A DNA stretch of 50,762 nt. Source: a virus. Its lineage: Duplodnaviria > Caudoviricetes. This document shows positions 13,524 through 34,226 of the stretch, one piece after another. Position numbers and translations under genes: made by a program. The notes under the pieces are model-generated. The model searched no databases, had not been told where the DNA came from, and saw only the letters and a list, made by a program, of their open reading frames with translations. Each line of letters begins with the position of its first letter. The stretch's first letter is position 1. The stretch is taken from positions 1-50,762 of IMG/VR virus record IMGVR_UViG_3300023104_000006, one strand, 5' to 3'.

Positions 13524-16500
13524 ATGGCAAAATTGGTTTATGAGATAGTCGGTGTAAATAGCCTCGGGCAGGCTACAAAGCAGGCCAATGCCGATTTATA
13601 TTCATTAGAACAATCCGCTGCGCGCACGAATGCCGCGATAGGTAAAGATATAACCTCTATTGCGCAACTTAAACGTGATATAGTTGAACTTAACAGGCAA
13701 AAGGTTAACATTATCGACGAGTCAAAACTTGCGCGTCAAAACAAACTTATACAGGAACTTGAGGCCGAATTAAAAAGGGCTGAAAACATAGGCAAGGTTG
13801 GTTTTGACAATGTTGGTGTTGCCATTAAAAAAACCGGTGATGAAGCAGAAAGAACACGGGAAAAGTTCAGGAAAATATATGAGCCAGGTGCATTTAAGGG
13901 GGTAACAACTGAGATACAAGGCGCCTCTAGCGAAGTAAAGGGCCTTGGAGGTGTATTTGGAGGACTGAGTGGAAGTATTCTAGGTTCTCTTGCACCACTC
14001 GCGCTTCTTACAGCAGGATTGGCGGCGGCAAAAGCTGTTTTCACTAATAATGTAAACCTTTCAGATGAGTTCGTTGACGTACAGCGTACTGCAAAATTGT
14101 CTGCTGAAGAGGTAGATGCGTTAGGCGATGCCCTTAAGCGAATAGACACACGTACGCCGCTTGCCGGTTTGCTTGATATAGCCTTCATTGGTGGTAGATT
14201 AGGAGTAGCTAAAAATGACATGGTGGGCTTTGTTACCACCGTAGATCAATTAGCAGTTGTTTTAAAGAAAGAGTTTCCGGGCGGAGCCGAAGCGGTTGCT
14301 AACTCTTTAGGTAAAATCATATCGGTTTATAAGATTACTCAACGCGAAGGTATAACGCTAGATCAGGCTTTAAAGAATACAGGTTCTGCATTTTTAGAGC
14401 TTGCACATAGTGGACAAGTAAACGTTCAATACCTTCAAGACTTTGCTCTTAGAACAGCGGGTATAGCTCAAATAGCTAAAATTTCCTTGCCCACAATGCT
14501 GGCTTACGGGGCTGTTTTATCCCAGGCTGGTATATCCGCACAAGTAGCTGGAACATCGTTAACTAGGTTAATATCAAATTTATCCACCAAAAGACAGGCA
14601 TTTTTTGCAATTGCTCAATTAGGAGATTCGACCTTAACAATTGAGAAATTTACAAACCTGATAAATACCGATACAAAAGCAGCGTTAGAGAGCTTTTTTA
14701 AAGGATTAAAGGCCGGTAATCCAACTCAAACGGAGTTCTCAGATCGTTTAAAAACACTCTCACTTACTACAGGCGCTGCAAAAAATGCTGTAATAGCATT
14801 AGCAGAGAATCAGGACGTATTATTTCAAAAAACTGCGCTTGCTAATAAAGCAAATGCAGAAGGAACAAGTGTGTCTCATAATTTTGAGTTGGCAAACAAT
14901 AGTCTTGCAGCTAGCATTGATAAAATTGGCAATTCCATTTCAAATGCTTTTACGAGTTCTTCTTTCGCCAGGTCAATTGCTAGTTTTTTAAACAGTATCA
15001 CATCTACTAAAAGTGAGGCTGCTGAGTTGGCAGAAGTCTTACAAAGAAACAAGCATGCAAATGAACAATTAGAGGCTTCTCTAAAGCCATTAGTGAATCG
15101 GTATGACGAACTAAAGGGGAAAAGTAAACTAACTACTGCTGAACAAACGGAATTACGAGATATTACAGCGAAGATTGGTGTTTTATTACCCAACGTAACC
15201 ACTAAATTTGATGAGTACGGAAACTCTCTTGATATTAACCGCAAAAAAATTAACGATTTAACAAAAGCGCAAAGAGAACTACTTTTAGCGCAAAACCGTG
15301 GAGTTGTTAAGAAAGCAAACGATTTATTTAATGTACAGGAACAGCCAAAGGCCATTATTCAAAACGCCCTTGCTGGTGCCTTTGGTGAAGATGATAAAGG
15401 AAGATTAAGAGATCAATTAATCCAAGTATTAGGCAGACAATACGAACTAGCTAAAACAATACGTGACGTTGGTGGAAAATTAACTAAATCACAACAAGGC
15501 GTAATTGATTATTTTGAAAAATTAGATAAAGCACGAAAGCCGACTAAAACAACACCTACTATTACGGGAGATGGCACAGAAACAATATTGCCAGATGATG
15601 GTGTAAGAACTATAGATGATATTAAAGCCGATATTAAGCGTGTTACTGACTTAAAAAAACCACTTGATGTTGCTTCTAAACAATACAAAGAATATTTATT
15701 ACAACTTAAGGGGTTCAAGGCTGAACTAAAGGCGGCAATGGGCTCCGATCTGGGATCCGGTAGGGTTCAACAAACAATAGTTAAAGAAGTAAACCTTAGG
15801 CAGCAGTTAGATGATATAATAAACAAAGCTAAAACATCAGCTACTGAATCAGGATTAACGGGCTATGCTTTAGAAATTAAACAGATTGAGAACAGATACC
15901 TATCTCTTAATCGTGAAATTAATAAATTTATCACAAACGTTCAGGCTCAAGAAAGGCTTTATAAAAAAACAGGTGGTAAACAGGGTATATCAAATAGTGC
16001 GGGAAACGCGCTTATATCTGAAGCACAATCGACTAAGGCAGGCCTTGTTTCACCTTTTAACAAAGAGATTGGCGATGCGTCCATCAAAGAAGCCGAACGG
16101 GTCGCCAATGAGATACAGCGCATTAATAATGAGTTTGGCGTTAAATCGCAAGAGAGCAAAGGGCGTGAATTAGCTGTAATACAAGCTCGTTATGATGCAG
16201 AAGTTGTAAAAGCTAAAGGCAATGCTGAAATACTAACCGCTCTGGATGCTGGCCGATTAACGGCTATTGAAGCTATTAACGCTAAGTATGAAGCCATACA
16301 AGCCGATCTCCAAAGTAAGATATTAGGCATTCAAGAAACTACCATAGCTACACTCACCGGCCGCGAAGAAGAACAAACCACTAAAATACAGAAAGAGTGG
16401 GAAACTAGAAGGCGGGCATTAAATGGCTACTATGCCGATTTATTAAAGATAGCGAGTGCGAGTAACTTTAACGTAACCGGTGCGGGTGTAAACCTGAACG

Positions 16501-21765: not shown

Positions 21766-21807
21766 TTTTACTGCTAAGCTTTTAATTCGTTCACCATTAT
21801 ACAAAAG

Positions 21808-21956
21808 TGAGTATGGCAGGACTCGAACCTGCATGATAGCTTTTAATCTACGGGCAGCAGCCTAACTGACTTCCCCCTTACGGTTCCCATGTACCTACGT
21901 ATCGCCGAGTCGTATCTATCTTAAGTCAAAGCGTCTACCAGTTCCGCCACATACTC
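21808..21956 (-). ncRNA. tRNA-Leu-like RNA (149 nt) with expanded anticodon/variable region
   Basis: Perfect 7-bp acceptor GAGTATG/CATACTC plus discriminator A; Leu-type D arm GCGGAACTGGTAGACGC; canonical T arm GCAGG-TTCGAGT-CCTGC; no normal 7-nt anticodon loop. Confidence 0.8.
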
Positions 21957-21963
21957 AACAAAA

Positions 21964-22016
21964 CAAATATACTTTGGGTTATGTATCTTTCCAACACTAT
22001 AACTTTTTATCATAGG
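21964..22016 (-). promoter_or_regulatory. Promoter (-7 TATATTTG) and operator ATGATAAAAAGTTATA for the tRNA-like operon
   Basis: Minus-strand -7 box at 21971-21964; operator at 22016-21993. Confidence 0.7.
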
Positions 22017-22967: not shown

Positions 22968-23076
22968 TGTGAGATTTTATTTCCAAATATACCCACTCTC
23001 CACCCACCCCGCAAATCACAAATAGTTATACCTGACACACTTTTGGTTATAATGCCATTAAATACTATATTTGAAC

Positions 23077-25650
23077 ATGATTCGTAAGTTACTCTTATTC
23101 TTACTACTCCCGTTCGCTACGTATGCACAGCAAACAGGATCCCCTGCAACAGGTGGCTACGTAGTCAAACCGCAGAATACGGCATATATAAAAGGAATGG
23201 GTATTGAGGCGCAAATGCGTGTATATTTTGGCAGTAATCAGTACTTTGACATACCTACACTAAAGCAAACGCAATTCAAAGTTGATAGCTCTGGTGCTTT
23301 AAAGTTTCCGATACAGAGACCGATTACAGATATGAATACTATTAGCCAAAACAGTGGTTATAATATATTTTACTCAAACATGAATCCAGCAAACGGATTT
23401 AGTAATTCATATTATCAGGGTATACAATTTTCGGCCGATCAAAACCCGTTGTTTAGGAATCAATTATTTTTCGATACAAATGGTGGTTTATATACTAGGT
23501 CTATGTTCAACGGAAACTGGCTTCCCTATAAGCAAATAATTAACCGTGATGATTTAACAAACTACCAATTAATACCAGATGGATTACAAAGCGTTAGTAG
23601 TATAACACAATCAGGCAATATAGTTACTGTAAATAATGCCGTATGGAGAATAAACCAAGTTAATTACACAGCGCCGGGGGCTGTTAATTTAACTATTGCC
23701 GCCGCAACTACAGGATTTAAACGAGTTGATTTGATAGTAGGTAATACAAGTAATCAGTTAACTGTGGTGCAAGGTGTTGAAAACGCTACTACAGCGGTAG
23801 AGCCAAACCTGCCAGCTAATACAGCGCGTATAGCACCTGTGTATGTAAACGGCACAACAGTTTCGCCACCGCAACCAGACCTAAACGAGTACGCAAAGAA
23901 AAGCGAGGTTGTTCCAAGACAAACACAAGTAACGGACTTGAATAACGTAACCAATGCAAATAGTAATTTCGGGTTCTTTTACTCCAGCGGTACAGCCGCA
24001 AATACGCCGTTTGGAACTTCCTTTAATCAGGGTATACAAGTTTCGGCCGACCAGAACCCGCAATTTCTTAATCAGTTAAGTTTTGATGTTACCGGGGGTT
24101 TATTTACTAGGACAAAATTAAACGGTGTTTGGGGTACATGGAATAGACTAGGAACGGGCACGGTTAGTTCGGTGGCAAGTGCAAATACCGATATATCTGT
24201 GACAAACCCGACCAGTACCCCTGTAATATCTTTAGATAATGTGAATGGTATAACCAAATCTTTTTACGATCCCACAAGCAGTATTCAAGGACAATTAAAT
24301 AATCGGGTGACGTTAAACACCACGCAAACAATACCGGGCTATAAGGTATTGGGAAGGGTGGATGTGCGTGGTTCTGATACAACCCTTGCAACGGGTGTGA
24401 CTGGATACGCGTCAACTGTAGTTACCAGGCGTTCGATATTCAACAGCAATAACAACGAAACAGTGTTAATGTCTTTCAGGCCACTATCTACTACCAATAC
24501 AGACCCCGGCACAAGTTTGCCGTACACTGGAAATAATGCTAAGGCGTTTGATTGGACAGGTGATATATCAGGGCCTGTATCTGGAACGGCTACTATTGGT
24601 GGTACAAGGCCTATAAATTCATTGACGGCAAACGCTGTTACGAGTAACGGGAACCTAACAGGGCTTACCCTGAACAGCTTGAATAACTTACCGATTGGTT
24701 TTGGCGCAGGTAGCCAGTTTGGATTTATGGATGTTTCATCGAATGGAACGCAACGGAATAGGTTTGTGTGGGGTAACGCAACTGCATTAGCAGAGGCTAA
24801 AATGGCGGTTAATAATTCTAACTTATATGCTACAGGTGGACAGGTTAGCGGAATTAGGAATGAGGGGAATCTAAACGCCTCTGTTGATAATGATTTGTTA
24901 GTTGGATTCAGATCTTCAGCTACGTACGGACTTGGGACTACCGCTATTTCAACTTTTACAACTTCTTTTTCAGGTACAGGCACGCCAGCAGCAAATAGCC
25001 AATACACATTTACAGGCGGTTCGGGGTCGGGGGCTATATTTTCAGTTTCTTTCGCTAACAACGCTACATCTGCAACAATCACAAGGGTTAGTGGCGGAAC
25101 AGGTTATACAGTTGGAAATGTTTTAACACGTACAATAAATGGGCTTACTATAAATATAACTGTTACAGCGGTAGGATTAACAGGTGTAAAAGCATATTCT
25201 TTTTATGCTGAGAACGCACCTTTATATATTAGTAATAGCGCAATCAACACAGCAACAAGCTCAGCAACTGTTTTAATGCGCGAAACGGATGGGACGGTGA
25301 CACAAACGGCAAGCAATGCACGTATTCCCTTAGATGTTACTGCCAATGCAACAATGGCTTTAAACCGGGATTACTTAAATAAAACAGCAACCCAATATAC
25401 ACTAACATTGCCACCTTGTAACGATTGGAATGTAGATGGTAGCAAGATTATAACCGTTTTGGCTACTGGAACAGGTGGAGTACGTATTTCTGTACCATCG
25501 GGTTATTCATTACAGGCAGGCACCATATTTGCCACAACAACAGGTAGCGGCGGAGCAACACTTACACAAGGTCAAAAGGTACAATTAGTGCCGGTTGGCG
25601 TTAATGCATATTCACTGCAAGCATTTAACGGAACAGTAACGGTTAATTAG
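23077..25650 (+). CDS. Tail-fibre-like beta-rich protein with N-terminal Sec signal peptide and two knob-like repeats
   Basis: MIRKLLLFLLLPFATYA|Q signal; repeated QGIQxSADQNPxFxNQLxFD..GGLxTR...NGxW domain; Thr/Gly/Asn-rich; TLTLP-type C-terminal beta sandwich. Confidence 0.7.
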   Translation: MIRKLLLFLLLPFATYAQQTGSPATGGYVVKPQNTAYIKGMGIEAQMRVYFGSNQYFDIPTLKQTQFKVDSSGALKFPIQRPITDMNTISQNSGYNIFYSNMNPANGFSNSYYQGIQFSADQNPLFRNQLFFDTNGGLYTRSMFNGNWLPYKQIINRDDLTNYQLIPDGLQSVSSITQSGNIVTVNNAVWRINQVNYTAPGAVNLTIAAATTGFKRVDLIVGNTSNQLTVVQGVENATTAVEPNLPANTARIAPVYVNGTTVSPPQPDLNEYAKKSEVVPRQTQVTDLNNVTNANSNFGFFYSSGTAANTPFGTSFNQGIQVSADQNPQFLNQLSFDVTGGLFTRTKLNGVWGTWNRLGTGTVSSVASANTDISVTNPTSTPVISLDNVNGITKSFYDPTSSIQGQLNNRVTLNTTQTIPGYKVLGRVDVRGSDTTLATGVTGYASTVVTRRSIFNSNNNETVLMSFRPLSTTNTDPGTSLPYTGNNAKAFDWTGDISGPVSGTATIGGTRPINSLTANAVTSNGNLTGLTLNSLNNLPIGFGAGSQFGFMDVSSNGTQRNRFVWGNATALAEAKMAVNNSNLYATGGQVSGIRNEGNLNASVDNDLLVGFRSSATYGLGTTAISTFTTSFSGTGTPAANSQYTFTGGSGSGAIFSVSFANNATSATITRVSGGTGYTVGNVLTRTINGLTINITVTAVGLTGVKAYSFYAENAPLYISNSAINTATSSATVLMRETDGTVTQTASNARIPLDVTANATMALNRDYLNKTATQYTLTLPPCNDWNVDGSKIITVLATGTGGVRISVPSGYSLQAGTIFATTTGSGGATLTQGQKVQLVPVGVNAYSLQAFNGTVTVN

Positions 25651-26612: not shown

Positions 26613-26632
26613 TAATAAATTATATTTGGGAC

Positions 26633-26782
26633 ATGGAAGAAATGTTAGAATTAGAGATTCCGGTTATGGATATGCCGAATGAAAACCAACCTGGAGAAAC
26701 AAAAAAACAAAAGTGTGAACGATTGCATCATGGCGAAGTTGGCACCTGTGACGAGGATGGCAATTTCACACCTGCGGTATAA
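26633..26782 (+). CDS. Hypothetical acidic 49-aa peptide, not in ORF track
   Basis: ATG 4 nt after TATATTTG (26621-26628); TAATG-coupled to the next gene. Confidence 0.55.
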   Translation: MEEMLELEIPVMDMPNENQPGETKKQKCERLHHGEVGTCDEDGNFTPAV

Positions 26783-28097: not shown

Positions 28098-28844
28098 ATG
28101 GCATTACCCATAGTAAAAGTTTACGCACAGGATGGCAGTATCATTATTGATATGGGTAACGGTGTTGCTATTACTGCTGCACCTGTAAACCTTGTAGCGA
28201 AATACATCCGTCGATTACCCTCTACCATTTACGATGATCGGGTTTCGTTGTTCGTAGTAGGACAACAGTATGTGGGATTTCAAGACAAATTACCCGATAC
28301 AATACGGGATCAGAATGGCGACAAGTTGGTGACGAGTCGTGCGCAAACTATAGATGATGTTGAAGATTATTTTACCTCATTAGGGATCGGGCAATCATCG
28401 GGGGGTAGTGTTGATTTGTCGGACTACTATACTAAAGAGCAAGTACAGGCGGGGTTTGTAAGCCTATCTCAATTCAATACATACGTAGCATCGCAACAGA
28501 CAATTAACGACCAGATATTTGCAGCTATTGGTGTTACGCAACTTGATTCACCAACACTTATAGCAGGAACACCGACAGAAAACAGTGTCCCCCTTGTTAT
28601 CGGTAGTGTAGCTAATGCAACATCTTATGTGCTTAGCCGGGATGGGGAGGTTATTTATACAGGTGTATCGGGTATGTATAACGCAACCGGCTTAGCCCCC
28701 GATACAGAATATACCTTTTCGGCGGTGTCTAAGGGCACAGGCTTTATTGATAGCGCACCGACATTTGTAACTATTACTACAGCGGGTGGTATTACGCCGC
28801 CTCAAAATACACTCCCATATACATTACCGTTTATATTATCATAA
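28098..28844 (+). CDS. Virion protein with C-terminal fibronectin type III domain
   Basis: ATSYVLSRDG...YNATGLAPDTEYTFSAVS FN3 signature. Confidence 0.75.
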   Translation: MALPIVKVYAQDGSIIIDMGNGVAITAAPVNLVAKYIRRLPSTIYDDRVSLFVVGQQYVGFQDKLPDTIRDQNGDKLVTSRAQTIDDVEDYFTSLGIGQSSGGSVDLSDYYTKEQVQAGFVSLSQFNTYVASQQTINDQIFAAIGVTQLDSPTLIAGTPTENSVPLVIGSVANATSYVLSRDGEVIYTGVSGMYNATGLAPDTEYTFSAVSKGTGFIDSAPTFVTITTAGGITPPQNTLPYTLPFILS

Positions 28845-30040
28845 TGGCAACAAAAATTACATACGCTGATAAGGTTACAGGCGACTCGGTTTCGGCCAGT
28901 GATATGAACTCTATTAAAGTAGCGGCTAATGGTGCTATTGACGATGCAGCCACCGCTATAAATTCAGCAGGTACAGCGCAATCTTCGGCAACAGCGGCAC
29001 AACAAGATATTGATACCCACGAAGCGAGAGTAGATAACCCGCATGCGGTTACAAAGGCGCAGGTTGGATTAAGCAACGTTAATAATACTGCCGACGCTAA
29101 TAAGCCGATTAGTGATGCTACTCAAACAGCATTGGACGCTAAGGTTCCCACATCAAGAACCGTAAACGCTAAACCGCTATCAGGCAATATAACGCTTAAC
29201 CAAGACGATATTGCAGCCGGTACAACCTATACTCAATATTCCAAAACAGAGCAAACTAACTTAGCAGGGGTTGTTACTGACTTTGTATCGCTCCCTTTTG
29301 CATCTACCATTAATTGGGATATGCAAAATCAAAAATCGCCCTTAGCTAAATCCACGATAACGGCAAGCTTCAGCCTGGTTATAAGTAATTTTAGATCAGG
29401 TGGGAAGGCTGAATATAAAATTACTGTAAATACAGGTTCACAAGTTACAATTGCATTAACTGGAACTGGACTTACTTTCAGTATGGCAAATACATCATTA
29501 ACGTCTTATGCTTTGCCGATAGGAACGGGTAAAACATATTTCATTAAACTTACTAATGATGGTGGATTGGTAAATGTTGTGATAGAAGATTATAGTGTTC
29601 CATTGAATGCTATAAACTTTACTAAAGCCAGCAGGACAACAGCACTATCAACGGCCACGGGGGTATATGTTCCAATTCCACTTGAAACACCCGATTACAA
29701 CCCGATAAACAACTGGTCTGCTGCGAATCCAACTCGTTTTTTGATTCCAGGGACTGGACGTAAATTGATTACGATTACTGTTTATGCAAAGCATTTAGCA
29801 AATGCTACAGCATCTACAAGAAGGGTGGGTGCATCGGTAAATGGTGTTCAAATACCAGAAATAGATAGTATCCCAGCAGTAGTTTCTGGGGGTGCAGATT
29901 CGTTTAAGACATCAACATTTCAAGCTATCATAAATACCACCGGCACCGATTATGTTGAAGGTCTGGCTTTTCAAAATACTGGAGCTTCATTAAACTTGTT
30001 AGCCGCTTCTGTCTCGGTTAAAATAGAGGATTTGGCATGA
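28844..30040 (+). CDS. Tail fibre/receptor-binding protein
   Basis: DNPHAVTKAQVGLSNVNNTADANKPIS and RTVNAKPLSGNITL fibre repeats; C1q/TNF-like C-terminus. Confidence 0.75.
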   Translation: MATKITYADKVTGDSVSASDMNSIKVAANGAIDDAATAINSAGTAQSSATAAQQDIDTHEARVDNPHAVTKAQVGLSNVNNTADANKPISDATQTALDAKVPTSRTVNAKPLSGNITLNQDDIAAGTTYTQYSKTEQTNLAGVVTDFVSLPFASTINWDMQNQKSPLAKSTITASFSLVISNFRSGGKAEYKITVNTGSQVTIALTGTGLTFSMANTSLTSYALPIGTGKTYFIKLTNDGGLVNVVIEDYSVPLNAINFTKASRTTALSTATGVYVPIPLETPDYNPINNWSAANPTRFLIPGTGRKLITITVYAKHLANATASTRRVGASVNGVQIPEIDSIPAVVSGGADSFKTSTFQAIINTTGTDYVEGLAFQNTGASLNLLAASVSVKIEDLA

Positions 30041-30900
30041 GTTACAGACCTAACATATCCAATATAAACAACTTCCCTATTATTGTTTTCATTGGGGATA
30101 GTACAGCGCATGGTAATGGTTTAATTAATAGCTATTCGGATGGGATTGATCCTAAATATATGGTTCCATCATTGAAGTTATTTAATTATTACAAACCTGA
30201 TCGAACAAGTACTAATAATGGGAATTGGGAACTTTACGACCCGACTATAGCCAACGGGAAGTGGAATAGCACTTCTGGATATGCAAGGCCAACGTCATTC
30301 CCTTATGAAATGGGGCCCGATGCTGGATTTATGTATCGGATGCAAGAGTTAGGAAACCAGCCATTTTTAGTGATTAAATGGGCTTTGGGCGGCACACGAT
30401 TAATAGGCGACTGGTTAAAATCTAATAATTACATGTACCAGGGGCTTATCGACTACAGCTACAAAATAGCTATGCAAAAATTACAGCCTTTAGGTGTTAG
30501 GAACCCGGTAGTTAAAATAGTAGATGTATGCTTAGTTACTAACGATGTATCTTCGACCGATTGGAACGCGGCAACGTTCTCTGCCGGAATACAACAAATT
30601 AATTCTGATCTTAGAAAGGATTTTAATAATCCTTTGTTAAACATGTTCTGGACACAAGTTAGGACAGATTTATCAACAACAACAGCCTTTCCTACTCCCC
30701 CAACACCGGCAAAAATAGCTGAGGCACAGGCTTGCATAAACAACTGTCAAGACATTAGTAATCCTGCTTATATTAAAAACTTTACCGTATTTAATGGATT
30801 TCAGAATCTACCTTTACAATCTGATATTGTACATTACACAAGTCAAAGCTACATTGATATAGGAATAACCAAAGCTAACACATTTTATCCTTTGTTATAA
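30037..30900 (+). CDS. SGNH / sialate O-acetylesterase-like hydrolase
   Basis: FIGDSTAHG, KWALGGT and DIVHY catalytic blocks. Confidence 0.75.
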   Translation: MSYRPNISNINNFPIIVFIGDSTAHGNGLINSYSDGIDPKYMVPSLKLFNYYKPDRTSTNNGNWELYDPTIANGKWNSTSGYARPTSFPYEMGPDAGFMYRMQELGNQPFLVIKWALGGTRLIGDWLKSNNYMYQGLIDYSYKIAMQKLQPLGVRNPVVKIVDVCLVTNDVSSTDWNAATFSAGIQQINSDLRKDFNNPLLNMFWTQVRTDLSTTTAFPTPPTPAKIAEAQACINNCQDISNPAYIKNFTVFNGFQNLPLQSDIVHYTSQSYIDIGITKANTFYPLL

Positions 30901-30951
30901 TTCTCACCAAATAGCCCTCCTTTCACTTTTTGTTATATCGTGTGGGAGTTG

Positions 30952-31148
30952 TATATTTGTAAATCCTGCTTGAAGTCAAATAGTATTAGAATCCGTAAAT
31001 TAAGCCGTGACTATTACAGCTATACCAGTAGCGTTATTTGATGGAGAGGTATTATACAGAAGTGCCACAGGAAGAAACGGTGGTGATATTCTACTCTGGT
31101 AGGTAGACAGGAATAAGAGCGATTGGCTTAATAGCTGGTCGCTTTTTT
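30952..31148 (+). ncRNA. Candidate stand-alone structured sRNA with own promoter and terminator
   Basis: -7 box 30952-30959; closing stem TCCTG/CAGGA; kissing loops TACCAG/CTGGTA; terminator 31115-31148; only a 21-codon ORF inside. Confidence 0.6.
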
Positions 31149-31179
31149 GTTTTGTGATTATGGAGTTGTATATTTGGGT

Positions 31180-31650
31180 ATGTTAACACAGGCACAAATC
31201 GAGGCAAAGTACGGCAAGGCTAATCCAACTGGCAGGGGCTACCTGGTAACATTAATATTGCCATTCCCCATGCGCCTATCATGGGAACGTCAAACCAAAA
31301 TCAAATCATTTCAATGTCATAGGTTAATTAAGGATAGGCTATTAATGGTTTATACCGATTTATTACTACACTATGGCTATGATAAACTTGTTGAACTTGG
31401 TATAGATATTTATGGTGGTTGTTTCAATTACCGGCTCATGCGTGGAAGCAACAAGACATTGTCTCATCATTCATGGGGTATTGCAGTAGACCATGATCCC
31501 GATCGTAACCTACTACATGAAACAGCCCGCACGGCTCGCTTTGCACGACCTGAATATAAGCCAATGATTGATATTTTTTACAAGCATGGTTTTAAAGGAT
31601 TAGGCCCTGAAGAAAATAGAGATTGGATGCACTTCGAGATTGGCTCATGA
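31180..31650 (+). CDS. Endolysin, M15 family zinc peptidase
   Basis: GGCFNYRLMRG, LSHHSWGIAVD and DWMHFE motifs; start re-assigned to ATG 31180. Confidence 0.9.
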   Translation: MLTQAQIEAKYGKANPTGRGYLVTLILPFPMRLSWERQTKIKSFQCHRLIKDRLLMVYTDLLLHYGYDKLVELGIDIYGGCFNYRLMRGSNKTLSHHSWGIAVDHDPDRNLLHETARTARFARPEYKPMIDIFYKHGFKGLGPEENRDWMHFEIGS

Positions 31651-31829
31651 TTACCCTCGCTCCTGGCACTAAACTAAGGGCAAGATATAGCCTGCCTGAA
31701 TTTAATATAGTTGGTAATATGCTATATCAAGTTGGTTATCATGGTGACAGAGTTGGTATACGTGTACTTAATACTGTTTTATACCTTGACAACCTTATGG
31801 AAGATGAATTAAAGGTATTTGGATTATAG
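31647..31829 (+). CDS. Hypothetical protein
   Basis: ATGA-coupled to the endolysin gene. Confidence 0.5.
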   Translation: MITLAPGTKLRARYSLPEFNIVGNMLYQVGYHGDRVGIRVLNTVLYLDNLMEDELKVFGL

Positions 31830-31832
31830 ATT

Positions 31833-32075
31833 ATGGAACAACAAACCAAATTCGGAATAGGACAAATCGGTAACGAAACACCTCAGTTTGCTAAAAACGC
31901 TTTTCGAATCTATTTCTTTGCCAGTAAAGCTTTAATTGGCTGGTTTGCTTATACTAAACTGTTCCCGCCTGAATGGATATATGAAGCAATGGGTATAGTT
32001 ACTTTGTTATTAGATCCAATTGTTTACGGGTTGTCTAAAATGGTTGGTGTAGTGCCTGAGAAAGATGAGAAATAA
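31833..32075 (+). CDS. Holin-like small membrane protein
   Basis: ETPQFAK followed by two hydrophobic segments; downstream of endolysin. Confidence 0.5.
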   Translation: MEQQTKFGIGQIGNETPQFAKNAFRIYFFASKALIGWFAYTKLFPPEWIYEAMGIVTLLLDPIVYGLSKMVGVVPEKDEK

Positions 32076-32121
32076 ATAGCGCGACTTATTCGGATTGTCC
32101 GGGCGCGCATGTGTGGGGTGG

Positions 32122-32313
32122 TTACCTTCTCATGTTTGCCAATACAAATATAAATCCCTCATCTATGCATCCCAAATATGTATCAGTCGGTGTGGCTACA
32201 ACCTGCGCATGATATTTTAATTCATCATCATCATTCCCGATAAACGTAACAGTTCTTTGTCTATCAGTTTCGCTTAGTTTTTGTAATCTGTCAATCAATT
32301 CCTGTACTTTCAT
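32122..32313 (-). CDS. Hypothetical protein
   Basis: MKVQELIDRLQKL start common in phage early genes. Confidence 0.6.
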   Translation of the reverse strand: MKVQELIDRLQKLSETDRQRTVTFIGNDDDELKYHAQVVATPTDTYLGCIDEGFIFVLANMRR

Positions 32314-32401
32314 CTTCCTAATACTAAATAATCTAATGTTAAAAACAATATTACCAGCCCACCCAATAAGTAGGTGAGCCAGTGTTTGCGGAGGTGGTTA
32401 A

Positions 32402-32869
32402 TCATACCTTAACCTTATTTTTCACATACGTATCATAAACGTACTTCAATAACCCTAAAGCGATAGCCTCCCAGTTAATATCGCTTACTATAAAAGCCAA
32501 TGCGTTACTTAATCCGCTGAAGAAGCCAACTCGACCGGCCTTGCTGGTTAATGCGCTCATATCAGCCCATATCAGGCCAAATGCCTCTTGTAAGTTATCT
32601 ACCTGATGTCCGACACCCTCAAAGTACTCTTTTAGCCAAGCAAAGATAGTAGCTTCATTTACTCCGGTCTTTTGCTTAGCTATTTCTAAGGCTTCAGGGA
32701 ATGGTTTTCCCGCGGTTAGCTTAATTACTTCTACCAGCTTTGATATTTGTATTAGCTTCATTTGTTGATCTTGTGGCAACTTATTAAAGCTATCCCGTAC
32801 AGCGTTTCTTAATGCAGGCAGGATAAATAGTATTACTTTGCCTAAAATGGTATTCCAAAAGTTTGTCAT
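32402..32869 (-). CDS. Hypothetical helical protein
   Basis: 155-aa ORF with A-rich start context. Confidence 0.6.
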   Translation of the reverse strand: MTNFWNTILGKVILFILPALRNAVRDSFNKLPQDQQMKLIQISKLVEVIKLTAGKPFPEALEIAKQKTGVNEATIFAWLKEYFEGVGHQVDNLQEAFGLIWADMSALTSKAGRVGFFSGLSNALAFIVSDINWEAIALGLLKYVYDTYVKNKVKV

Positions 32870-32881
32870 ATTGTTTATTGT

Positions 32882-33079
32882 TTAATCGTTATTAAGTAAA
32901 ATTAAATGGTTTTCTGAATGAGGGCTATTCAGGTTATGAATCTCTACCAATTTTCTTATAAGATTTGGTAAGTCATAAATTAAAACCTCTTTGTACTCCA
33001 TGTCTTTAATGAAGCAAACTCCAGCATCATCGACTAAAAGTTCTTGAGTTGATGATATACTAATTCTCTGTGTTATCAT
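32882..33079 (-). CDS. Hypothetical protein
   Basis: ORF in the leftward arm. Confidence 0.5.
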   Translation of the reverse strand: MITQRISISSTQELLVDDAGVCFIKDMEYKEVLIYDLPNLIRKLVEIHNLNSPHSENHLILLNND

Positions 33080-33403: not shown

Positions 33404-33814
33404 TTAATTGTTAAATGTTAGTTCGGTGCCGGTTAATGATTCAAAGTAGAATGTTATTCGTTTAGGTTTACACTCAATTAAACCAAACCTTTCGGCTAAT
33501 TTGAATGTAGGCTTATATTTTCTCAATCGCTCTACCTGAGCCTCCAATTCAGACCTGAAACTTTCCAAATCATAAGCTGATTTAAACTTATTACAACCCC
33601 TGCATGATGGCATTAGGTTATCAAAGTGGTTTAAATGGCTTAATGTTAAGTGAGATAAATGTGGTGGTATTTTGTGTTGATTACGTATGTGCCATTCAAA
33701 ATTACGCTGTGATATACAGTGATCAACCTGCATATCTTTTATTGCTAAGTCATTGCCACAATATGCGCATTTACCACCATACTTTTGATGGACTATTGCT
33801 CGGTTAATTTTCAT
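33404..33814 (-). CDS. HNH endonuclease (McrA/HNH_5-like)
   Basis: KYGGKCAYCG, MQVDH and NLMPSCRGCNKFK; start re-assigned to MKINRA. Confidence 0.85.
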   Translation of the reverse strand: MKINRAIVHQKYGGKCAYCGNDLAIKDMQVDHCISQRNFEWHIRNQHKIPPHLSHLTLSHLNHFDNLMPSCRGCNKFKSAYDLESFRSELEAQVERLRKYKPTFKLAERFGLIECKPKRITFYFESLTGTELTFNN

Positions 33815-33890
33815 TTTAAATTCAAATAAACAGCACCGCCAACATAGCAGAACCAGGTGAGGAGGAATAGGGTGGTGTGGAGGGTGTGCT

Positions 33891-34226
33891 TCATAATGTA
33901 GTACCAATCTGTCTTTTAGCTGAGTTTAGCATATGTATATACCTAAGAGGGTCAGCATCAACCAGACTTTTGCATCTTGAAAGCTTTATTTTACTTTGTG
34001 ATTTGCCATTAACCTTAACTCGTGACTTTCTATCAATTGAACTGACTATGTTTGAAAAGGTAGGTCTCATGTCATAAGTGAATATCTGAATAAACAATTG
34101 GAATTGCCTAATTCCCTTTTTAATATCCCAAATTCTAAGACCGAAATATTCTGCATGTTCGTCCTTGCAATTTATATATCTATTAATAAATATTTCTCTG
34201 TTTTTAAGATATGTTTCTAACTTCAT
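33891..34226 (-). CDS. Hypothetical protein
   Basis: ORF in the leftward operon. Confidence 0.5.
   Translation of the reverse strand: MKLETYLKNREIFINRYINCKDEHAEYFGLRIWDIKKGIRQFQLFIQIFTYDMRPTFSNIVSSIDRKSRVKVNGKSQSKIKLSRCKSLVDADPLRYIHMLNSAKRQIGTTL

Follow-up and report, generated by a model that had tools for sequence, protein, structure and literature searches.

Few structured RNAs encoded by phages are known, and fewer still have comparative support. The pRNA of phage phi29 is a stand-alone RNA, similar in size to the one described here, with a helix that joins its 5′ and 3′ ends, a multi-helix junction and paired loops that covary. ROOL and GOLLD are large phage-associated orphan RNAs, three to four times longer, that lie near tRNA genes and have no partner protein, and the tRNA cluster of phage T4 holds two stable RNAs of unknown function, species 1 and species 2. 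The lambdoid PR′–tR′ '6S' RNA is a short, terminated late transcript upstream of the lysis genes; this RNA and the put RNA of phage HK022 both act in cis. In the purine riboswitch, helix P1 closes a junction with conserved joining strands, and two hairpin loops kiss. Phages also carry morons, which are independent cassettes of promoter, gene and terminator. Here we describe a candidate stand-alone gene for a structured noncoding RNA (ncRNA) at positions 30963–31150 (+) of the IMG/VR virus record IMGVR_UViG_3300023104_000006 (Caudoviricetes). We refer to this whole record, 50,762 bp in length, as the window; it is estimated to be 95% complete and encodes portal and major-head genes.

The RNA unit lies at the end of the tail-fibre block, within a gap of 279 nt that separates an esterase gene from an endolysin gene. 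The original prediction, made from the letters of the window, was of an uncharacterized stand-alone structured phage ncRNA with kissing loops. Comparison of five copies upholds it, with 15 compensatory base pairs and no matching Rfam family, and every element that it named (promoter box, terminator, helices, loops, 15-mers and a small open reading frame (ORF)) re-mapped to the position given. We consider it very probable that the copies form a real family of structured ncRNAs. For the function of the family we favour, at a probability of about 0.6 and from sequence comparison, a late-expressed accessory RNA that would act in trans.

Homologues and covariation of the fold

Homologues were recovered by exact-word scans of IMG/VR, with words drawn first from the hairpin region and afterwards from conserved blocks. 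The first scan returned five loci, one of them homologous (L179), and the second returned none; the third returned two, both homologous (L179 and L180). Eight loci each came from the fourth and fifth scans, of which two (L179 and L185) and five (L179, L180 and L185, together with L191 and L192, which hold the 3′ half only) were homologous. Loci L175–L178, L181–L184, L186, L187 and L188–L190 had the seed word alone in common and were dropped as chance matches before any counts were made. A covariance model of the 5′ domain, R1, matched all five homologous records and revealed a second copy in the 345-kb phage G007. In the window, R1 scored 103.2 bits at 30960–31051, with the next match at 14 bits, and the full-length copies score at least 73.9 bits. 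Beyond the window there are four further full-length copies, of which the 345-kb phage has two, and a 72-kb phage and a 24-kb fragment have one each. In two related records the copy is truncated to the 3′ half. Members are 157–245 nt long, and their length varies only in two inserts, P3 and P5.

A full-length model, its structure set by hand, was derived from the two G007 copies, and all five copies were then aligned to it; an E-value cut excluded the truncated copies L196 and L197 and a 22-nt match in L198 from this alignment. Counts were made over 41 pairs and 202 cells in the five sequences, with the contact between the loops L4 and L6 written as a pseudoknot. Standard pairs occupied 94.1% of the cells, compared with a mean of 84.4% after shuffling, and 15 of the 41 pairs had changes on both sides, compared with a shuffled mean of 4.8 (0 of 500 shuffles reached 15). 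When the partners were slid by 1–3 columns, pairing was 30–48% and only 0–4 compensatory pairs remained. The compensatory changes fall in P1, P2, P2a, P5a, P6 and the kissing loops (Table 1), the outcome of a homologue comparison that had been proposed together with the original prediction. In the L4–L6 contact the change is a swap of A-U for G-C, in L185, and P2 shows one swap of U-A for C-G.

Part of this signal can be seen outside the fitted alignment. A plain MAFFT alignment already shows the covariation of P2 and P2a, invariant flanks anchor P1, P5a and P6, and RNAalifold independently recovers P1, P2, P2a, P4 and P6. RNAalifold also offers an alternative in which CUU pairs with GAG at 31046–48, extending P1 and competing with the first P5a pair. 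Six pairings had been read from the window sequence, and five of them are kept in the homologues: TCAAATAG/TTATTTGA, which is helix P2, TCCTG/CAGGA, GCTA/TAGC, TCTAC/GTAGA and the loop–loop contact. The sixth, GCCAC/GTGGT (31064–68/31080–84), is a local hairpin of the variable insert enclosed by P5a and proved to be lineage-specific. The GCTA/TAGC stem is present in all copies and is invariant, so covariation neither supports nor contradicts it.

According to this comparison, the RNA is a four-way junction of P1, the P2 domain, P5 and P6, in which P1 closes the 5′ and 3′ ends and P6 adjoins the 3′ strand of P1. The P2 domain is itself a three-way branch with the variable P3 and the invariant P4. 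About 25 unpaired nucleotides of the junctions and loops are conserved, among them the near-invariant strands CUUGAAG, UGGAGA, ACAG before P4 and GU after P4, and insertions are tolerated in P3 and P5. L6 CTGGTA (31096–31101) pairs with L4 TACCAG. Helix lengths hold in all five copies (7 bp for P2, 4 bp for P4 and 3–5 bp for P6), and because they are constant, P4 folding back along P2 would bring L4 level with L6; from this model we infer that the contact is intramolecular.

Base pairs of the G-U type indicate the strand. One such pair, at 31048/31090 in P5a, is present in all five copies, and three more G-U positions occur in one or two copies each. On the opposite strand these pairs would be A-C, and we therefore read the RNA on the plus strand, the same strand as the endolysin. 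The RNA is not coding, because the frame of the 21-codon ORF is not kept in the other copies: its ATG lies within the conserved block UUUGAUGGAG, and the four other copies read 1, 3, 3 and 3 codons. Codon-type conservation of this ORF, which the original prediction had named as evidence that would speak against a structured RNA, was not found.

Table 1. Features of the RNA locus, compensatory pairs of each helix and copies of the RNA (coordinates are those of the window unless a genome or locus is named)
Feature	Position	Strand	Details
P1, 5′ strand	30960–30968	+	Firm core TCCTG 30964–68; pairs with 31108–31116; 7/9 positions pair in window; compensatory 5/9; closes 5′/3′ ends
J1/2	30969–30975	+	Single strand CTTGAAG, 7 nt; near-invariant in 5/5 copies
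P2 and P2a, 5′ strands	30976–30986	+	P2 (30976–82) pairs with 31035–41, compensatory 1/7, always 7 bp; P2a (30983–86) pairs with 31014–17, compensatory 2/4
P3 variable insert	30987–31013	+	About 27 nt in the window; other copies reach about 80 nt
P4 hairpin	31019–31032	+	GCTA/TAGC, loop L4 TACCAG (31023–28); stem invariant in 5/5, compensatory 0/4; L4 pairs with L6
P2 3′ strand and J2/5	31035–31047	+	P2 3′ strand (31035–41), conserved J2/5 TGGAGA (31042–47); holds ATG 31041–43
21-codon ORF	31041–31106	+	MERYYTEVPQEETVVIFYSGR; sole ATG ORF of the unit, not a gene
P5 domain	31048–31090	+	P5a GGTATTA (31048–54) pairs with T.GATATT (31084–90); compensatory 4/7
P6 hairpin	31090–31107	+	(T)CTAC/GTAG(A), loop L6 TCTGGTAG (31095–31102); compensatory 2/3 counted pairs
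L4–L6 contact			Compensatory 1/7; central C-G, C-G invariant; at least 4 contiguous pairs in 5/5
P1, 3′ strand	31108–31116	+	CAGGAATAA
Promoter-like site of RNA gene	30929–30959	+	TTTG (30929–32), 19-nt spacer, TATATTTG box (30952–59)
Direct repeat, copy 1	30945–30959	+	GGAGTTGTATATTTG
Intrinsic-terminator-like hairpin and T run	31115–31154	+	Hairpin 31115–31146; 14 pairs, 5 G-C, loop of 4, tail TTGTTTTGTG
Second promoter-like site	31146–31176	+	TTTG (31146–49), N19, TATATTTG (31169–76)
Direct repeat, copy 2	31162–31176		GGAGTTGTATATTTG; within second promoter-like site
Tail-fibre-like ORF	28844–30040		Several PHROG tail families
SASA-type carbohydrate esterase	30037–30900		Pfam PF03629
Endolysin, Peptidase_M15_4	31180–31650	+	Pfam PF13539, E 1.2e-07; PHROG 17001 'endolysin', E 4.8e-41; relatives align from residue 1
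Holin-like ORF	31833–32075		
Full-length copy, window	30960–31116		
Full-length copy a, G007	105402–105589		
Full-length copy b, G007	89282–89486		
Full-length copy, G008	751–947	−	
Full-length copy, G006	L179:1566–1810	−	
Truncated copy (3′ half), L191	6790–6885	−	
Truncated copy (3′ half), L192	3630–3730	+	

Transcription signals, genomic setting and distribution

The window copy stands between two promoter-like sites of the pattern TTTG-N19-TAnnTTTG, which we take to be the Bacteroidota promoter consensus. Sites of the form TTTG-N18–21-TAnnTTTG number 8 in the window, these two included, whereas 2.07 were expected and none of 100 shuffles reached 8; the TATATTTG box alone occurs 14 times, with 6.11 expected. 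The two sites are identical at 24 of 31 positions (read by eye), including the 15-mer GGAGTTGTATATTTG, which has no other exact copy in the window; a 15-nt repeat arose in none of 300 shuffles of the flanks. The terminator-like hairpin with its T run is, from its sequence, likely to be the 3′ end of the RNA, and the same T run provides the TTTG of the second promoter-like site.

At three sites (23066–23079, 26621–26635 and 31169–31182) an ATG stands 3–4 nt behind a TATATTTG box (23073/23077, 26628/26633 and 31176/31180), and the genes that begin there are an 857-aa ORF, a 49-aa ORF and the endolysin. This arrangement suggests that the phage makes leaderless mRNAs for these three genes. The endolysin mRNA is probably its own and leaderless because its ATG follows the box by 3 nt, as at the two other boxes, and the proposal that the second 15-mer belongs to the endolysin promoter gains from this spacing. 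Assuming the same distance from box to start, we place the start of the RNA near 30963, which coincides with the point at which helix P1 turns regular. A further full promoter-like site, on the minus strand at 32176–32145, has no ORF behind it and aims antisense into the holin-like ORF; to judge from its position, an antisense RNA to the lysis region may start there. Enrichment of the promoter pattern in G000, G006 and G007 makes a Bacteroidota host likely for these three carriers; in G008 and G009 the pattern is not enriched.

G001, a complete genome whose major capsid protein is 80% identical, is the nearest relative of the window phage by that protein and has the structural block in common with the window. 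Compared with window positions 28844–33000, it has no M15 endolysin, no esterase and no RNA, and from this comparison the tail-fibre and lysis region is a mosaic. The esterase gene, used as bait, found no close relatives. Many loci related to the window endolysin have a small membrane ORF, probably a holin, directly in front of the endolysin. We rejected the idea of a decayed holin in the window gap: tblastn of the upstream small ORFs (<130 aa) against 30881–31200 gave a best score of 18.9 bits. About 2.2 kb downstream of the RNA, an ORF at 33404–33907 (−) matches HNH endonuclease weakly (Pfam E 0.004, which falls short of the curated cut-off).

The other copies occur in very different settings. 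In G008, a Phage_lysozyme gene (PF00959, E 1.1e-32; GH24) directly follows the RNA in the same orientation, and small membrane ORFs lie upstream of the RNA; in the 12 listed of 108 matching records, relatives of this lysozyme bear the annotation endolysin or lysozyme. G009 and G010 hold the same lysozyme intact (96% identical in G009) and only the 3′ half of the RNA, which is fused directly behind a 41-residue membrane ORF, upstream of the lysozyme gene. Compared with L185, the truncated loci L191 and L192 are without a 74-aa ORF and the 5′ half of the RNA. The G006 copy lies between two aberrant tRNA-like genes, near tRNA-Met and tRNA-Glu, and copy b of G007 lies between tRNA-like fragments; copy a of G007 is found among ORFs without a Pfam family. 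The window phage has between zero and two detectable proteins in common with each other carrier, and no carrier-specific protein emerged when the window ORFs were compared by blastp with the full ORF sets of G001, G004 and G006–G009.

Exact direct repeats of unrelated sequence bracket two of the five copies, 15 nt long in the window and 14 nt long at G007 copy b, and 0 of 300 shuffles produced such a repeat in either case; none flanks the other three copies. The repeat at copy b, TTTAGTTCTTTTAA, is found at G007 89272–89285 and 89489–89502 (L198 1489–1503 and 1708–1722) and precedes both the RNA and the next tRNA-like sequence. The original prediction had proposed cassette-like insertion from the 15-mers of the window, and this second repeat, of a different sequence, strengthens that proposal.

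The tRNA-like neighbours of two copies invite comparison with tRNA itself. The RNA resembles the tRNA family (RF00005) in the order of its four helices and in the contact between the loop of the second arm and that of the fourth, which stands beside the 3′ strand of the closing helix. L4 also reads like an anticodon loop (UU-ACC-AG in G007, U-ACC-AG in the window and UU-GCC-AG in L185), and L6 has the matching GGU or GGC, so that the contact looks like a built-in glycine codon–anticodon pair; this may be coincidence. The RNA differs from tRNA in that the tRNA model gives no match at E up to 10 and ARAGORN makes no call on it, in the lack of a T-loop or D-loop consensus and of a CCA-type end, in a J1/2 of 7 nt, in four to six Watson–Crick loop pairs and in its length. 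The stable RNAs of T4 are alike in being small non-tRNA genes among phage tRNA genes, as are two of the five copies here; likened by description only, they differ from the window copy, which lies outside any tRNA cluster and has a promoter and terminator of its own.

Several carriers have unusual tRNA-like genes. The window encodes a 150-nt tRNA-Leu(UAA)-like gene at 21807–21956 (−), which matches the Rfam tRNA model with 37 bits, carries 52 extra nucleotides inserted in its anticodon loop and has a long extra arm. It is recognized by ARAGORN only when introns are allowed (72-nt intron); a group I intron would be longer than the insert. A TATATTTG box (21964–21971) lies 8 nt upstream. Further over-long or odd tRNA-like genes, in phage records both related and unrelated, occur at L179 1171–1321 (−) and 2031–2089 (−), G004 13772–13911 and G007 98365–99304; one of these odd genes has a 91-nt insert, one is without an anticodon arm, and the G004 gene is a tRNA-Leu(CAG) with a 62-nt insert. 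A strict link between the RNA and over-long tRNA-like genes was ruled out, as G004, which does not carry the RNA, also has one.

An Rfam scan, another check proposed with the original prediction, found no family for the RNA. The 4227 models of Rfam 15 gave no match at E up to 10 in window positions 30700–31400, and over the whole window the sole match was the tRNA at 21808–21956. On the homologue loci (E up to 1) no model matched the RNA copies, and the matches elsewhere were to tRNA or due to chance. Blastn of the window region and two homologues against the 50,697 deposited phage records of INPHARED did not detect the RNA; the window region matched 78 Flavobacterium phage records, inside the endolysin gene only. 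The PLSDB plasmids gave no match. Two exact patterns, the first satisfied by four of the five copies and the second by all five, went unmatched in 185,579 prokaryote genomes, one per species, a search in which exact patterns can miss diverged copies. A spurious antisense ORF, used as a proxy for counting copies in a protein collection, gave no candidates. Full-text literature searches, covered at the level of listings and the opening lines of abstracts, yielded nothing on the RNA, and matches to conserved words were primers or small interfering RNAs in unrelated papers.

Relatives of the window endolysin (58–81% identity) were covered by the best 80 of 300 IMG/VR stretches and the best 80 of 328 metagenome stretches, and beside these best 160 loci no RNA was found by blastn, nhmmer or R1, for which the top score was 22.4 bits. 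By these sequence searches, the family is absent from every catalogue searched and is so far found in uncultured phage contigs only. Exact-word scans seeded from one sequence had recovered a family that escapes detection by similarity around the neighbouring gene.

A proposed trans-acting accessory RNA and its alternatives

The window copy resembles a moron: it has its own promoter-like site and terminator-like hairpin, stands between two genes, and is absent from G001 and from the best 160 endolysin-relative loci. We propose that the close agreement of the two promoter-like sites reflects late transcription of the RNA alongside the endolysin, and that the RNA gene would move between phages as a small accessory cassette, because two of the five copies have fresh flank duplications of 14–15 nt and the carriers are very different phages. 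The compact folded RNA would then act in trans by binding a host factor or a small ligand, rather than serve as a leader of the endolysin mRNA. Trans action is suggested by the terminator of the RNA, the separate, leaderless-type promoter of the endolysin and the copies in islands of RNA genes, as well as by the truncated copy that survives before an intact lysozyme and by the closest relative, which is without the RNA.

Several observations weigh against this proposal or against the strength of its basis. There are only five full-length sequences, and their alignment was fitted to a model made from two of them, which favours the structure. P4 and most of P2 never vary and so contribute no evidence from covariation. 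The single-sequence fold of the plus strand is modest (−49.3 kcal/mol, z −1.87; equalled by 5 of 200 shuffles), with z −1.20 for the minus strand and z −0.67 for the L179 copy. The frame of promoter and terminator is clear in the window only: the terminator hairpin is not kept in other copies, both G007 copies have only a T run after P1, and the G008 and G006 copies have neither element. No partner protein was found, and binding to a host factor is our inference. Among sequencing runs listed as containing this DNA there was no RNA run, the single one being DNA and likely the source sample. The conserved junction core, tertiary lock and peripheral inserts fit aptamers and ribozymes as much as protein-binding RNAs. 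Finally, in two of the four carrier lineages an endolysin, of unrelated family in each, directly follows the RNA in the same orientation. This exceeds random expectation and could point to a link with lysis in cis; equally, the boundary of the late module could be a favoured site of insertion.

A cis link is the main rival, although we regard it as unlikely. The RNA would be a leader of the lysis genes, either a riboswitch-like sensor or a polymerase-modifying RNA, that controls read-through of the terminator into the endolysin. Of the roles suggested with the original prediction (protein sponge, anti-defence or lysis timing), only a link to the lysis genes gained some support from the sequence comparison: the RNA stands immediately before unrelated endolysins in two lineages, M15_4 in the window and, in G008, Phage_lysozyme, with relatives in G009 and G010. 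The window terminator begins where P1 ends, a T run directly follows P1 in both G007 copies, and aptamers typically combine invariant junction strands with variable helices at the periphery. The arrangement of a promoter, an RNA of about 190 nt and a terminator directly before lysis genes recalls the lambdoid 6S RNA and HK022 put, and the conserved, P1-closed junction with kissing loops, followed in the window by a terminator, recalls loop-locked riboswitch aptamers.

In contrast to the lambdoid systems, however, the endolysin has a promoter-like site of its own past the terminator, with the ATG 3 nt behind the box, and copies of the RNA also occur in tRNA-like islands. Two copies are followed by tRNA-like sequence and not by protein genes, which places them outside a 5′ untranslated region, and this, together with the lack of an Rfam riboswitch match, separates the family from the riboswitch aptamers. 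By eye, we saw no stretch in the RNA that is complementary to the terminator arms and could provide an alternative pairing. G009 and G010 retain the lysozyme with half of the RNA only, and none of the best 160 loci with M15 endolysin relatives has the RNA, their top R1 score being 22.4 bits when full-length copies score at least 73.9.

More doubtful is a stand-alone catalytic or ligand-binding RNA, either a self-cleaving or processing ribozyme or an abundant free aptamer that sequesters a small molecule. The complex fold, the conserved unpaired nucleotides, the tertiary loop–loop lock and the tolerated insertions in P3 and P5 are as expected for such an RNA; no co-occurring phage protein was found, and two copies lie inside islands of tRNA-like genes, where transcripts need cutting. 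Against it, no Rfam ribozyme or riboswitch model matched at E up to 10 for the window or up to 1 for the homologues. Hammerhead-like words (UGAUGGAG, GAAG and GUC) are present in the wrong order around the helices (read by eye), and the window copy, with its own start and terminator, would need no cutting.

Joining this idea to that of a mobile cassette gives a new class of compact, self-sufficient phage RNA with a four-way junction, fired from an endolysin-type late promoter, that would need no phage protein and would be either a free aptamer soaking up a small-molecule signal of the host or a new ribozyme for RNA-gene processing or lysis timing. On present sequence grounds we give this combination an outside chance. 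As a free aptamer, it would be the RNA counterpart of the protein 'sponges' that phages use against cyclic-nucleotide immunity.

Pairing of L4 and L6 between molecules, which would form dimers or rings as in phi29 pRNA, ROOL or GOLLD, appears improbable. In outline, the RNA is most like pRNA: a closing 5′/3′ helix (here P1, covarying at 5 of 9 pairs), a junction, drift in sequence, and two loops that covary and share four to six complementary bases, the loops here being complementary in all five copies with one compensatory swap. ROOL and GOLLD are alike in their complex fold, their presence in phages in the neighbourhood of tRNA genes and the lack of a partner protein. The RNA differs from pRNA in having a four-way rather than a three-way junction, in its large tailed carriers and in helix lengths whose constancy in all five copies fits an intramolecular contact. 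It is dispensable in close relatives, and its absence from G001 means that it cannot be an essential part of packaging. ROOL and GOLLD are much longer, and neither their Rfam models nor any other Rfam family, including that of pRNA, matches here.

We consider it very improbable that the unit is mobile DNA without RNA function, similar to a miniature inverted-repeat transposable element, with P1 as the terminal inverted repeat and the 14–15-nt repeats as target duplications. Exact direct repeats of different sequence do flank two of the five copies, P1 amounts to an inverted repeat of 9 bp at the extreme ends (TTAAACCTG...CAGGTTTAA in three copies), and the phages that carry the unit differ greatly. 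Such an element would not explain the compensatory changes in P2a, P5a, P6 and the loop–loop contact, the strand-specific G-U pairs that are kept or the invariant junctions. Three copies are without a flank repeat, the window repeat encloses the terminator as well and so reaches beyond the inverted-repeat unit, and no transposase lies nearby in the window. We give almost no credence to a 21-residue peptide (MERYYTEVPQEETVVIFYSGR) as the product, the only ATG ORF of the unit notwithstanding, since its ATG lies in a conserved RNA block, its frame is lost elsewhere and the substitutions follow base pairing and not codons.

The favoured reading remains an accessory RNA that would be expressed late and act in trans. 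The phages among which the RNA is spread range from about 50 kb to 345 kb, and it stands twice directly before unrelated endolysins and twice amid odd tRNA-like genes. Its small size would allow biochemistry at once, its tertiary lock is clear, and it offers RNA biologists a new, well-defined fold to test for ligand binding, catalysis and protein capture. For phage biologists, it is a candidate RNA accessory gene that may be expressed at the time of lysis.

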